From a virus, in the UHGV virus genome UHGV-0018397: a stretch of 22,539 nt of DNA; one strand, given 5' to 3'. A program made the translations under genes and the position numbers. The notes beneath the pieces were generated by a model, which saw only the letters and a program-made list of their open reading frames with translations, had not been told where the DNA came from and did not search any database. Of this stretch, positions 12,152-16,468 are shown piece by piece; the stretch's first letter is position 1; every line of letters begins with the position of its first letter.

Positions 12152-13654
12152 ATGTCGGCATCAATTAATAACGTCATTAATGTGACGCTTCTCGAAGAGG
12201 GACGGGCGGCGGCGCGAGATAACATCAACGTTTGCGCAATTCTGACCAGCCAGACGGGGGTATTGAGCACTGCTGAACGCTGGCGTTCATACAAAAGCGC
12301 ATCTGCTGTCGAACAGGACTGGGGGGCTTCTTCAGTCACCGCAGCTTTTGCGAATGTGTTTTTCGGGACCAGTCCTAACCCGGTATCCGCGGGCGGCACG
12401 CTGATCGTCGGTTACTGGAACGCTGCCGGGGAAACGCTGCCTGCGACCAGCGGTGTACTGCGTGGCGGTGAGATTTCTCAGGCAGTCGTACTGCCAGCGT
12501 TACGCGAGAAGTCTGACTGGTCATTCAGTATTGAGATTGACGGCACTAAGCACGATGTGACTGAAATTAATGGCATGACGGCGACGACACTGGCAGATGT
12601 CATCGCCCAAATCCAGGCGAAAATTACGCCAGATGTTGCATCGGTTGTTTTTGATGGCAGCCGTATAGCGATTACCAACAAATCGACAGGGACTAACTCT
12701 GTTGTTGGTTATCCGACAGTGCTGGATGGTGGCTCTTTTATTGGCGATCTGCTGGCGGTTGCGGAGGGTTCCGGCGCTTCGCTGGTAAACGGTAGCGCAT
12801 CAACTGAGATTTCACCGGAAACACAACTGGAATCTCTCAGCAAACTCAAAGCGCAGGTCAACGTAAAAGGCGCGGCCTTCATCGACAAAATTCTCGATGC
12901 GCAGGTGCCGTTGATCGCTTCATGGGCTAAAGCGAACGCGGTAATCGTGTATGAGACATTTACCGGTTCGGCAGCTCTGGAAGTTGATCCGACTAACCCG
13001 GCATGGGCGGTAACACTCGCCAGCCAGAGTAATTTCCGCATGCTCTACAGCAAAACAGGCAACCGGAAATTTGGTGTTAGCTATATGGCGCGCACGCATA
13101 CCGTTAATTTCAACGGAGAACGCACTGCAATCACTTTGCACCTCAAAACGATGAACGTGCCGGCCGAAAGTTATGAGCAGACGGAGATCGACAAAGCGAA
13201 GCGTGTAGGTCTCGACATCTACACCACGATTAAAGACGTTCCCTGCGTGCTGTCGAGCGGTGCTAATGATTTTGTCGACAACGTCTATAACCTGATGGCC
13301 TACGTTGATGCAGTGCAGACGGATTCCTTCAACCTCCTTAAAACCACGCCGACTAAAGTCCCACAAACCTATTATGGCGTTGATCAGTTAGAGGACTGTG
13401 TAGAGAAAACCACGCATGGGTTTGTGAAGGCTGGGGTGTTCAATCCGGGTACCTGGACGCTGCCTGACTTCTTCGGGGATCGGGATATGTTTCTGCGAAA
13501 TATCGAGCAAAACGGGTATTACGTGCTGGCCGGTGACCTGAAAGACCAGTCAACCGCAGACAGGCAGGAACGCAAATCCCCGGTTGTTCAGGTAGCAGTG
13601 AAGAATGCTGGTGCTGTTCACAGTGCCGATATCATCATCAATTTCAATAAATAA
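12152..13654 (+). CDS. Tail sheath protein (contractile tail)
   Basis: 500 aa, first and largest gene of the tail block, followed by a tube-sized gene, chaperone and tape measure; GAGGA ribosome-binding site. Confidence 0.65.
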   Translation: MSASINNVINVTLLEEGRAAARDNINVCAILTSQTGVLSTAERWRSYKSASAVEQDWGASSVTAAFANVFFGTSPNPVSAGGTLIVGYWNAAGETLPATSGVLRGGEISQAVVLPALREKSDWSFSIEIDGTKHDVTEINGMTATTLADVIAQIQAKITPDVASVVFDGSRIAITNKSTGTNSVVGYPTVLDGGSFIGDLLAVAEGSGASLVNGSASTEISPETQLESLSKLKAQVNVKGAAFIDKILDAQVPLIASWAKANAVIVYETFTGSAALEVDPTNPAWAVTLASQSNFRMLYSKTGNRKFGVSYMARTHTVNFNGERTAITLHLKTMNVPAESYEQTEIDKAKRVGLDIYTTIKDVPCVLSSGANDFVDNVYNLMAYVDAVQTDSFNLLKTTPTKVPQTYYGVDQLEDCVEKTTHGFVKAGVFNPGTWTLPDFFGDRDMFLRNIEQNGYYVLAGDLKDQSTADRQERKSPVVQVAVKNAGAVHSADIIINFNK

Positions 13655-13664
13655 GGAGCGGTAA

Positions 13665-14096
13665 ATGTCTCAGATTGTTATCAGTGCAGATACCGCGACC
13701 ATCGTTCTGAATGGGCGAATCATCACGGATATCGCTGCGGGGGACTACGTCACGCTGACGCCATCCAATCCGCTTACAAGCCGCGCCAATAGTGCGAATA
13801 ACGGCGTCACAATCTCGGGGCGTGTTGATGCCGGGGTGCATGTGATGGTGATACGTGTCCAGAAATTTTCTAACGATGATATCTGGCTTAACCAGCAGCG
13901 TACCGCCGCGATCCCCGTTGTCTTTAACGGCTCAGTTAAAGAGTCGTTCGTGCGCGACGGCGCGGCACTGAAGGAAACCTACGATCTTCAGGCCGGTTCT
14001 ATCACCACACAACCGACGCAAACCAAAAACAACCAGGACGTTAACGCACTGATGGAATACACCATTGAGTACCGCAATGTCGTGCGTAATGTATAA
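13665..14096 (+). CDS. Tail tube protein
   Basis: 143 aa directly after the sheath gene; AAGGAG ribosome-binding site. Confidence 0.6.
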   Translation: MSQIVISADTATIVLNGRIITDIAAGDYVTLTPSNPLTSRANSANNGVTISGRVDAGVHVMVIRVQKFSNDDIWLNQQRTAAIPVVFNGSVKESFVRDGAALKETYDLQAGSITTQPTQTKNNQDVNALMEYTIEYRNVVRNV

Positions 14097-14104
14097 GGTC
14101 AGAT

Positions 14105-14518
14105 ATGTCTAAAGAACAGCAGAAAAAAGCACTCGAGATGATCAAGGCGGTCTACGATGACGGTTTTGCTGAAATCAACGGCAACCGCTACGACTTTGCT
14201 GCGATGACACACAAAAAACGCCGCAAGGTTTTTGCCTTCTTCACAGGCATTGCCTCTGAGTTATCGCGGCAGTCTCTTGAGTTTCTGGACTCAGAGCGAT
14301 TTGAGGAAATTGAACGCCTGATGTTCGATTACGTTCTGTTTGACGGTGTGCAACTGTCTAAGCAGCCGGAACACTTCGAATCCTACCCTGGTGATTACGT
14401 CATGCTAATCACAACAGCGCTTCAGGTTATCAGCCTGCCTTTTATGGGCGGGAGCAATATGAACTCACGTTCAGAAGCTCCAGACGTTCAGAAATTTACG
14501 TTAAATCCTCGAACATAA
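14105..14518 (+). CDS. Tail assembly chaperone (G-like)
   Basis: 137 aa acidic protein between tube and tape measure, the conserved position of the tail assembly chaperone. Confidence 0.6.
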   Translation: MSKEQQKKALEMIKAVYDDGFAEINGNRYDFAAMTHKKRRKVFAFFTGIASELSRQSLEFLDSERFEEIERLMFDYVLFDGVQLSKQPEHFESYPGDYVMLITTALQVISLPFMGGSNMNSRSEAPDVQKFTLNPRT

Positions 14519-14685
14519 GCGACGACATGAGCATGTATCTGGCGCTATCAAAGGCCGGATACGGCCCCTATCACGAACTTGTTAAATTAGACACACCAGA
14601 GCTGTTTGACATGCTTGAGTTCGAGAATATCAGCGCAGACATTCAACACTACGAGATGGAGAAGGCGCGGAATGGCGATAGTTAA
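14395..14685 (+). CDS. -1 frame extension of the tail chaperone (GT-like frameshift product, C-terminal part)
   Basis: The -1 frame is open from 14395 to TAA 14683-14685, overlapping the chaperone 3' end and ending 14 nt inside the tape measure start; no ribosome-binding site before its only ATG (14527). Confidence 0.45.
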   Translation, partial: LRHANHNSASGYQPAFYGREQYELTFRSSRRSEIYVKSSNISDDMSMYLALSKAGYGPYHELVKLDTPELFDMLEFENISADIQHYEMEKARNGDS

Positions 14686-16468
14686 CGAGCTTATTACCAA
14701 ATTCGGTTTTATCGGTAATCTGGCGCCGCAGGAAACCTTCAATGCAAATCTGAAAGCATCTATTGGTTTGCTTGCCGGGCTTGGAGCCGCTATCGCCGGT
14801 TCGGCTGCGGGGGTTGCTGGCTGGGTGACGTCTGTCAGTCAGTCTATTGATCCGCTGGTCCAGTTCTCCCGGGAAACGGGGGTGGCGATCGAGACCGTTC
14901 AGTCACTGGGTTACGCGGCGTCTGTAAATGGCTCAAGTGTTGATGCGTTGCAGGCTTCGCTAGGTGAGATGACAAAAAGAGTGGGGGAGTTCGTTTCCAC
15001 CGGTGAGGGGGAGGCGAAAGACGTTGCGGAAAGGCTGGGCCTTCAGTTCAAGGATATGAACGGGCAGGTAAAAAACTCCGATGTGATATTTCGTGAACTG
15101 GCCGACAAACTGCACGGCATGAGCCAGGCAGAGAAGTTTTCTGTTCTGGATAAGATGGGTATCGACCGTTCCATGGTGCAGTTGCTATCCATGACGGGCG
15201 AAGAAATATCTTCGTTGCAGAACAAGGCCGAGGCGCTTGGTGTTGTCACGCAAGACCAGGCCGATCAGTTTGCAGCCTACAACGATTCTCTGACAACGCT
15301 GGGGAAAGGCTTTGATGGTATCAAATTTCAGGTTGCCGTCGGATTTGTGCCGGTACTGAAAGACCTGGTGGATGGGTTTACGGACATTCTCATTGCTAAT
15401 AAGGATCTCATCAAAAACGGGCTGGCCCATCTTGGGGAAATTATCTTCTCCGTTATGGGTATGATCCGTCGCTTCCTGCCGATTATTGGTCTTATTACCA
15501 CCGGATTTGTAGCCTGGAAAATTGCTGCTATAGGACTTAGAGCGGTGCTGGCAACCATATTCTCTCCTGTCGTACTGATCACTGCCGCCATTATCGCTGT
15601 CGTTCTTGTTATCGATGATTTGCTGACGGCTATGGAAGGTGGCCAAAGCGTTATTGCTGATTTCTTCAAAGATAACTGGGGAATAGATATTGTTCCCGCA
15701 CTGAAAGAGGCGAAAGCGTCGCTCATGGCTTTCATAAACTACGCTATTGGCGTGTTTAAACCGCTTGCTGATGCGATTGCCTCCATGTTCAGGATGGTGT
15801 GGCATCTCATCACAGGTGCGTTTACGGGTGATTTTCAGGGTGCGATGAAGGATGCGCAGAATATCTTTGATTCTCTTATAGCGTTTATCACTGGTGCATT
15901 TGGTGTCGTTGGTGATGCGATTAAATACGTGTTTGGCGATGCCGGCGCGTTTGTCGTTGATGTATTCACTACTGCCATCGAAAACACGAAGCTGATGTTC
16001 TCAGCACTATGGAAGTTAGTCGCTGGCGATTTTGAAGGTGCATGGGGGGATGTGGTAAAAATCTTCGATAACGGCGTCGAACTGATGAAAAAACCATTCA
16101 CGGCTTTTATTGACTGGGCGAAAAACATCTTTGCTGGGCTGGGGGAATACATCAGCAATATTATCAGCAACGCTGCTTCAAATGCCTGGAATGCGACAAA
16201 GTCATTCTTCGGGGTCGGTGAGGATGAACAGCAGCAGGGAGTAACCGGCGGCGGTAACGGCGGCATGAGTCCTGGTGGTATTCCTTACGGCATGAATGCT
16301 GCGGTGGGACTCGGTGGTGGTGGCGTGACAAGCAATTCAAGCGTCAGCCAGCAGAACACGATTCACATCAACACATCCGATCCGGTTGTCGCCGGGAATA
16401 CTGCGGCAGATAGCCTGCAACAAAACATGAAGGATGCCAACCGGTTGAGTGGCAGAGGAGGTCGGTAA
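14672..16468 (+). CDS. Tail tape measure protein
   Basis: About 599 aa from ATG 14672 (GGAGAAGG ribosome-binding site); long internal hydrophobic segment (FLPIIGLITTGFVAWKIAAIGLRAVLATIFSPVVLITAAIIAVVLVI) and Gly-rich C-terminus. Confidence 0.8.
   Translation: MAIVNELITKFGFIGNLAPQETFNANLKASIGLLAGLGAAIAGSAAGVAGWVTSVSQSIDPLVQFSRETGVAIETVQSLGYAASVNGSSVDALQASLGEMTKRVGEFVSTGEGEAKDVAERLGLQFKDMNGQVKNSDVIFRELADKLHGMSQAEKFSVLDKMGIDRSMVQLLSMTGEEISSLQNKAEALGVVTQDQADQFAAYNDSLTTLGKGFDGIKFQVAVGFVPVLKDLVDGFTDILIANKDLIKNGLAHLGEIIFSVMGMIRRFLPIIGLITTGFVAWKIAAIGLRAVLATIFSPVVLITAAIIAVVLVIDDLLTAMEGGQSVIADFFKDNWGIDIVPALKEAKASLMAFINYAIGVFKPLADAIASMFRMVWHLITGAFTGDFQGAMKDAQNIFDSLIAFITGAFGVVGDAIKYVFGDAGAFVVDVFTTAIENTKLMFSALWKLVAGDFEGAWGDVVKIFDNGVELMKKPFTAFIDWAKNIFAGLGEYISNIISNAASNAWNATKSFFGVGEDEQQQGVTGGGNGGMSPGGIPYGMNAAVGLGGGGVTSNSSVSQQNTIHINTSDPVVAGNTAADSLQQNMKDANRLSGRGGR

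Follow-up and report, generated by a model that had tools for sequence, protein, structure and literature searches.

A probable −1 ribosomal frameshift in the putative tail assembly chaperone gene of a myovirus-type prophage and its relatives

In phage lambda, a −1 frameshift at G_GGA_AAG within a small gene between the tail tube (major tail) and tape measure genes yields gpG and gpGT, two products that share an N-terminal domain, are made in a ratio of ~30:1 and are absent from virions (PMC5009743). T4 aside, long-tailed phages widely conserve frameshifting of this G-T type, and its efficiency is 2- to 3-fold higher in the P2-like ones (PMC5009743); gpE and gpE+E' of phage P2 and other G/GT counterparts in myoviruses show the same arrangement in phages with contractile tails. 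Here we analyse a locus of this layout in UHGV virus genome UHGV-0018397, a stretch of 22,539 nucleotides (nt) that we call the window. As in lambda, a small gene, here encoding a putative tail assembly chaperone of 137 amino acids (aa), lies between the tail tube and tape measure genes, and a −1 open reading frame (ORF) without a start of its own overlaps the 3' end of that gene and runs up to the tape measure gene. We consider it highly likely, judging from sequence comparison, that a −1 frameshift at G_CCU_UUU (14437–14443) yields both the 137-aa chaperone and a 193-aa fusion, and our confidence is higher still for the family as a whole than for the locus in the window. The locus very probably adds a further, so far unannotated member to the well-known G/GT class.

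The window's family has no detectable sequence similarity to the lambda proteins, and its slip site is N_CCU_UUU (tRNA-Pro/tRNA-Phe) whereas that of lambda is read by tRNA-Gly and tRNA-Lys; the window's virus, in contrast to lambda, is contractile-tailed, and its extension is short (80 aa). From P2 gpE it differs in both protein family and slip sequence. The NS1' site of West Nile and Japanese encephalitis viruses has a heptamer identical to that of most of the window's relatives (C_CCT_TTT in 22 variants, T_CCT_TTT in 7). That system, however, operates on eukaryotic ribosomes, is very efficient and has a strong pseudoknot downstream, whereas no conserved pseudoknot or strong hairpin was found in the window's family. 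The signals of E. coli dnaX and of the IS3 family are, like the candidate signal of the window's family, bacterial tandem-slippage sites at which an upstream Shine–Dalgarno (SD)-like sequence and a downstream hairpin can raise the efficiency; in contrast to them, the window has two weak candidate stimulators, and its motif is CCU_UUU, not A_AAA_AAG.

Proposed slip site and joining of the two frames

Our comparison draws on 91 chaperone homologues from a large protein collection, down to 43% identity, and on homologous loci taken at the DNA level from IMG/VR (two scans), GTDB genomes and GenBank phages, which reach down to ~35% protein identity. The 169 loci collected include 64 that are distinct around the slip site and represent ~21 lineages at 70% identity. 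Among the isolated phages, Yersinia phage fEV-1 and Vibrio phages VBM1, 1.154.O and 1.052.A are 35–50% identical to the fusion. At the nucleotide level, megablast of 13600–14900 against phage records gave no match, and sensitive blastn matched fEV-1 only.

Within the overlap of the two frames, a slippery sequence is conserved in these relatives. In the window it consists of CCT (14438–14440, Pro112) and TTT (14441–14443, Phe113), and the next codon after a slip would be TAT (14443–14445). Pro112-Phe113 is invariant in the protein alignment of the family, and its codons are all but fixed as well: the Pro codon is CCT in all of the distinct loci (64/64), and the Phe codon is TTT in 60 and TTC in the other 4. 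Other conserved residues of the same alignment, which serve as a synonymous-codon control, use 2–6 synonymous codons each; other conserved Phe columns are split ~50:50 between TTT and TTC, conserved Gly, Ala, Val and Arg use 3–5 codons, and CCT makes up 24% of the remaining Pro codons in these genes. The distinct heptamer variants comprise G_CCT_TTT (29), C_CCT_TTT (22), T_CCT_TTT (7), C_CCT_TTC (4) and A_CCT_TTT (2). When counted by lineage, the canonical C_CCT_TTY is present in 18/21, including all Vibrio phages examined. Outside the enterobacterial clade to which the window belongs, the heptamer is either canonical C_CCT_TTY or T_CCT_TTT; inside it, the codon before CCT is CTG, TTG, TTA, TTT or TGG. 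The window's overlap has only three in-frame slip-prone tetramers, namely T_TTT (14440–14443), G_GGC (14446–14449) and A_AAT (14503–14506). Together these comparisons support a slip site at G_CCT_TTT. The original prediction, made from the window's sequence, had tentatively proposed CCT-TTT while seeing no obvious canonical heptamer. The choice of site is borne out by the freezing of both codons at the nucleotide level over ~21 lineages, and the second remark is correct for the window, most relatives carrying canonical C_CCT_TTT.

On the plus strand, the open stretch of the −1 frame spans 14395–14685, following TGA at 14392–14394 and closed by TAA at 14683–14685. The final 41 codons of the 0-frame gene lie within this stretch, which continues for 167 nt (~55 codons) after that gene's stop and reaches 14 nt into the tape measure gene; the layout and coordinates originally described for it check out. 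Openness alone is not beyond chance: an open stretch of 96 codons has a probability of ~1% per start, and the window contains 38 antisense stretches of at least 96 codons. It is the position and conservation of the −1 stretch that exceed chance, because it fills the only large gap exactly and its conservation extends to every relative examined. The original prediction had named the absence of a homologous extension as evidence against a frameshift; such an extension is present in all related phages and prophages.

The geometry of the two frames is informative across lineages. At the heptamer, all 64 loci have an open −1 frame, which in 7 of them begins just 4 nt ahead of the Pro codon. Depending on the lineage, the 0-frame stop is 9, 11, 21, 26 or 31 codons past Pro-Phe, whereas the −1 extension measured from the heptamer is 75–81 codons long in every complete homologue and has a GYG motif at codon 39–41 in all lineage representatives not cut by a contig end. 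A constant extension despite a variable 0-frame stop would be expected only if the frames join at or beside Pro-Phe.

When the fusions predicted for 23 diverse loci are aligned, the junction introduces no break. R116 and L121 are invariant and Y119 nearly so, all within the first eight residues after the shift; N137, G152, G154, E172 and I176 are invariant farther on, and a TN[VI]SD motif lies upstream of an annotated ATG, followed by a domain that gene callers annotate as a small ORF. The extension is thereby conserved from the first residue past the slip site, well upstream of any start codon, and in lineages with an early 0-frame stop the conserved post-junction residues are encoded where no other frame codes. 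Substitutions in the window's own clade (49 distinct sequences) point the same way. The overlap carries 0.42 variants/nt versus 0.91 and 0.81 in the flanks (Fisher p 1e-6), and its changes are enriched for those synonymous in the −1 frame (12/30 versus 0.22 expected, p 0.02), whereas those synonymous in the 0 frame (6/30) show no enrichment. Variants from Arg to His, Pro or Leu in the 0 frame are all silent (Thr) in the −1 frame.

The part of the 0-frame product that follows the slip site (14444–14515, residues 114–137) shows no synonymous excess and comprises only 7 residues in several lineages. This tail looks like a dispensable by-product, its length apparently set merely by where the stop happens to fall.

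Under the proposed mechanism, most ribosomes would read 14105–14518 to the TAA at 14516–14518 and produce the 137-aa protein. A minority, with tRNA-Pro on CCU and tRNA-Phe on UUU, would slip back by one base; tRNA-Phe would re-pair perfectly on UUU (14440–14442) and tRNA-Pro at 2/3 positions on GCC (14437–14439). These ribosomes would then read from TAT to the TAA at 14683–14685. The predicted post-shift part (14443–14685, plus strand) is a 'T'-like extension of 80 codons plus stop, and the predicted fusion combines chaperone residues 1–113 with 80 aa to give 193 aa (22.6 kDa) with the junction peptide QPEHFESYPGDYVMLITTALQVISLPFYGR. For fEV-1 the predicted −1-frame peptide is LPEHWDDNPQDYLMFVTTALAVFSYPFHAR, and a QRYRLTIPSR...NFIQK stretch likewise lies upstream of the Met. 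The most likely mode would be tandem or A-site-dominated −1 slippage. By analogy with lambda, both proteins would act in tail assembly, with the shared N-terminal domain binding the tape measure protein, the extension recruiting the tube protein and a fixed, low slip rate setting the ratio of the products. We infer the slippage itself, its efficiency, its stimulators and the roles of the two domains. The layout, the frozen slip site and the conserved extension nonetheless support the interpretation first given to this locus, a programmed −1 frameshift in a G/GT-like chaperone arrangement.

Observations against a frameshift and candidate stimulators

Several observations weigh against this interpretation. 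The first base of the heptamer is G (or A/T) in the window and most of its enterobacterial clade, and hence the heptamer is non-canonical there; the window's overlap holds no canonical in-frame X_XXY_YYZ heptamer at all. The candidate downstream hairpin is not statistically distinctive, with 12% of same-locus control positions equalling it, and the SD-like sequence upstream of the window's slip site (CAGGUU) is weak, at −3.2 kcal/mol and rank 0.29. In the window's clade an ATG lies 8 nt past the 0-frame stop, which would make termination-reinitiation possible there, in that clade alone. Pfam gave no match for the chaperone, the extension, the fusion or any of 38 family members, so that by this measure the protein does not belong to the Phage_TAC_* families. 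Finally, the sole proteomics on a relative, performed on fEV-1 virions, lists no Gp18 and reports no fusion.

With regard to the heptamer, G at the first position lowers the expected slip efficiency but leaves the U_UU.U tetramer in place: the A-site codon re-pairs fully and the P-site codon at 2/3 positions. Heptamers of the form H_HH.U_UU.Y belong to the most efficient −1 motifs of E. coli, where the tetramers U_UU.C and U_UU.U come second and third behind A_AA.G (PMC4066793). With a pseudoknot present, the six effective tetramers gave 0.26–5.6% frameshifting in that host (PMC4066793). The West Nile virus slip site is C_CCU_UUU, and changes at its first position, including the natural U_CCU_UUU, are tolerated (PMC11507841), which parallels the occurrence of G, A or T in the enterobacterial clade. 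The degenerate G_CCU_UUU is, by analogy, plausible as a working slip site, because the motif class is efficient in E. coli, first-base changes are tolerated and a lambda-type ratio needs only a few per cent.

The hairpin, a mere candidate for a stimulator, would pair GGAGC (14451–14455) with GCUCC (14477–14481) around an inner stem (14451–14481, plus strand), 7 nt past the slip site and at −12.2 kcal/mol. Folding of the single sequence downstream of the slip site gave z −1.2 against shuffles in the window and z −2.4 in fEV-1, and a sliding-window comparison gave a mean z of −0.7. Over the lineages, hairpins 5–9 nt downstream average −9.7 kcal/mol versus −6.5 kcal/mol in controls (median rank 0.2), several lineages having one 5–8 nt downstream of the heptamer, and no RNA structure common to the lineages was found. 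The GGAGC/GCUCC pair also occurs in Vibrio phage 1.154.O, though the encoded residues differ. Upstream, an SD-like GGGGGU(G)/GGCGGUG element lies 8–13 nt before the heptamer in 10/21 lineages, with −6 to −9.7 kcal/mol and rank 0.1 or lower. This element, which recalls the upstream stimulator of dnaX, is present in loci L072, L075, L125, L152, L162 and others, L125 and L162 being without a downstream hairpin. An exact 10-nt direct repeat, ACGTTCAGAA, at 14467–14476 and 14484–14493 (17 nt apart), lies just past the window's slip site and is probably due to chance. A pseudoknot formed by its second copy and UGAAC (14460–14464) together with the GGAGC/GCUCC stem was considered and dropped, as the second copy is not conserved in the clade.

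The assignment of the 137-aa protein as a tail assembly chaperone is backed, short of proof, by gene position and by a near-threshold family score: one Vibrio homologue reaches 24.6 bits against Phage_TAC_9, for which the cut-off is 25. The PHROG families 16705 and 16793, to which the chaperone and the small downstream ORF belong, are both labelled 'unknown function'. Searches of PDB sequences with phmmer and with profiles returned noise only, and the profile of the window's family did not find by sequence the entry 5IR0, which is ORF19 of the Vibrio cholerae PLE satellite and has been named PLE tail assembly chaperone (PMC12987554). An AlphaFold2 model of the 137-aa protein has a predicted local distance difference test (pLDDT) score of 85 and is folded to about residue 116 and disordered after it (residues 117–133, pLDDT <50); the model of the 193-aa fusion, built from a mixed alignment, has a pLDDT of 44 and was not used. 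In the fEV-1 virion data Gp17, the chaperone homologue, was detected and Gp18 was not, and a fusion was not considered (PMC8309999 Table S2; raw data, ProteomeXchange PXD026811). This result neither supports nor refutes the frameshift, because chaperones and frameshift products are expected to be absent from virions.

Competing explanations

The C-terminal part of the extension has been annotated as a 52-aa ORF (14527–14685, plus strand; RefSeq WP_019076900.1; g18 in phage fEV-1; phrog_16793, E 6e-33), which we read here as part of the extension and not as a separate gene. A model with two separate genes, in which this ORF is translated from ATG 14527 or 14533, possibly by reinitiation after the TAA at 14516–14518, and no frameshift occurs in the clade, seems to us quite improbable. 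RefSeq and GenBank do list the ORF as its own gene, the ATG and the 8-nt stop-to-ATG spacing are common to the window and fEV-1, the Met is kept throughout the window's clade, and the window's slip site lacks the first C. The start itself, however, has no SD sequence: the anti-SD duplex predicted ahead of ATG 14527 (and 14533) has only −2.1 kcal/mol and does not reach even the mean background of the window (−2.7), whereas neighbouring gene starts have −4.0 to −12.7 kcal/mol, with one exception (17287, −2.7). The original prediction had spoken of a single ATG without a ribosome-binding site; the missing site agrees with these energies, but there is more than one ATG (14527, 14533 and later ones). 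The Met is present in the window's clade and some others and is displaced or missing in most other lineages, and 4/19 complete lineage representatives have no ATG, GTG or TTG between the slip site and the GYG motif. Candidate starts in other lineages have SD energies of −2.8 kcal/mol or weaker in nearly all cases, the exception being a TTG in L158 (−5.6 kcal/mol). A separate start would also leave unaccounted for the conserved −1-frame residues upstream of the ATG (R116, Y119, L121 and TN[VI]SD) and the preference of the clade's substitutions in that region for changes synonymous in the −1 frame. CCT-TTT is frozen in the window's clade too, and separate genes offer no explanation for conserving an unused site.

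An intermediate model is that the enterobacterial clade swapped the first C of an ancestral C_CCU_UUU for G, A or T and now either relies on slippage of tRNA-Phe alone on U_UUU, without P-site re-pairing, or stands between frameshift- and reinitiation-dependent expression of the extension. We regard this as an unlikely but real possibility. In either case the family provides a natural allelic series of C, U, G and A at position 1 with which to gauge the weight of the first position on bacterial ribosomes.

The shift might also occur at another level or place. The conserved element holds a homopolymeric run of four T, and RNA polymerase slipping on it (CCTTTTA) would give an mRNA subpopulation with one base fewer or two more; the comparative data fit slippage at the RNA level and at the ribosome level alike. 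The run is only four T long, however, and only three in fEV-1 and L085 (CCT TTC), whereas the transcriptional slippage sites known so far need much longer runs. What is conserved is CCT-TTY in a fixed frame, within a full tandem-slippage heptamer in most lineages, as ribosomal slippage requires, and we therefore hold transcriptional slippage to be most improbable. We give equally little credence to a ribosomal shift elsewhere in the overlap, whether at A_AAT (14503–14506), at G_GGC (14446–14449) or at a run of six A near the stop in fEV-1. Apart from T_TTT, the overlap has no in-frame Z_ZZN tetramers except the former two, and fEV-1 does have tcc AAA AAA cca directly before its stop. These motifs, however, are not conserved, A_AA.U and G_GG.C are outside the six shift-prone E. 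coli tetramers (PMC4066793), and in lineages with a 0-frame stop 9–11 codons past Pro-Phe that stop comes before the alternative positions. The −1 peptide is conserved from directly after Pro-Phe onwards.

A protein search with the 80-aa extension found no natural in-frame fusions among its matches, which were only ORF calls of 50–53 aa and contig-end fragments. At the locus L032 (IMGVR_UViG_3300012233_000029) the −1 extension runs for 344 codons from the slip site, where a deletion of ~1.1 kb joins it in frame (..ENISAD followed by GQSVIADFF..) to the C-terminal third of the tape measure protein. A defective prophage or an artefact of assembly may account for it.

Tail module, annotation and distribution

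The 137-aa gene belongs to a compact structural module on the plus strand of a myovirus-type prophage. Pfam and PHROG matches in the window give the order sheath, tube, 137-aa gene, −1 extension and tape measure. The tail sheath gene (DUF3383; 12152–13654, plus strand; Pfam E 2e-68) is followed by the gene for a 143-aa tail tube protein (13665–14096, plus strand; phrog_280 virion structural protein, E 7.8e-15), directly upstream of the 'G'-like 0-frame chaperone gene (14105–14518, plus strand; 137 aa, 15.8 kDa; phrog_16705, function unknown). In Vibrio phage VBM1 the tube homologue is annotated as a virion structural protein and adjoins a gene annotated 'tail sheath'. The tape measure gene (14672–16468, plus strand) encodes 598 aa and matches phrog_8125, tail length tape measure protein (E 4e-214), and scores 33.1 bits against Pfam PhageMin_Tail, with a cut-off of 33.2; a Dit-like baseplate gene follows from 16468 on the same strand. 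Only one gap in the module is large, namely the 153 nt that separate the stop of the chaperone gene from the tape measure ATG; the others are at most 12 nt. The tape measure ATG at 14672 shares its reading frame with the chaperone gene and has an SD-type duplex of −6.4 kcal/mol, its SD sequence, GGAG (14658–14661), lying within the extension. The same 14-nt overlap of extension stop and tape measure start (ATGGCGnTnGTTAA) is found in the E. coli prophage (14672–14685) and in fEV-1 (L002 4664–4677).

The gene order is the same in Yersinia phage fEV-1 and eight Vibrio phages, VBM1, 1.154.O and 1.052.A among them. None of these nine phage records annotates a frameshift, and those of VBM1 and 1.052.A have no gene annotated in the gap before the tape measure gene; in the literature searched we found no described frameshift for dwarf myoviruses or VBM1-like phages. 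Our reading would provide a function and a corrected gene model for two 'hypothetical protein' families, phrog_16705 and phrog_16793, which occur in the nine isolated phages found and in ~150 viral contigs, and annotation pipelines could merge both ORFs at CCT-TTT. For recoding biology, it would add a phage case of the Y_CCU_UUU slip site, of which flaviviruses otherwise provide the best-known examples. A frameshift in the window would leave the understanding of tail assembly unchanged; it would be an ordinary phage G/GT arrangement, previously unannotated in the family.

The prophage type is rare in E. coli, where identical or 98% identical sequence occurs in 5/5,426 complete genomes; strains NADC1036, VE-F5 and TUM9803 are among the carriers. 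RefSeq records of these prophages give the 137-aa gene and the 52-aa ORF as separate hypothetical proteins, and in some of the five the tape measure gene is still a 'hypothetical protein' as well. Two of the five isolates have no listed host, and the others come from cattle, chicken and human.
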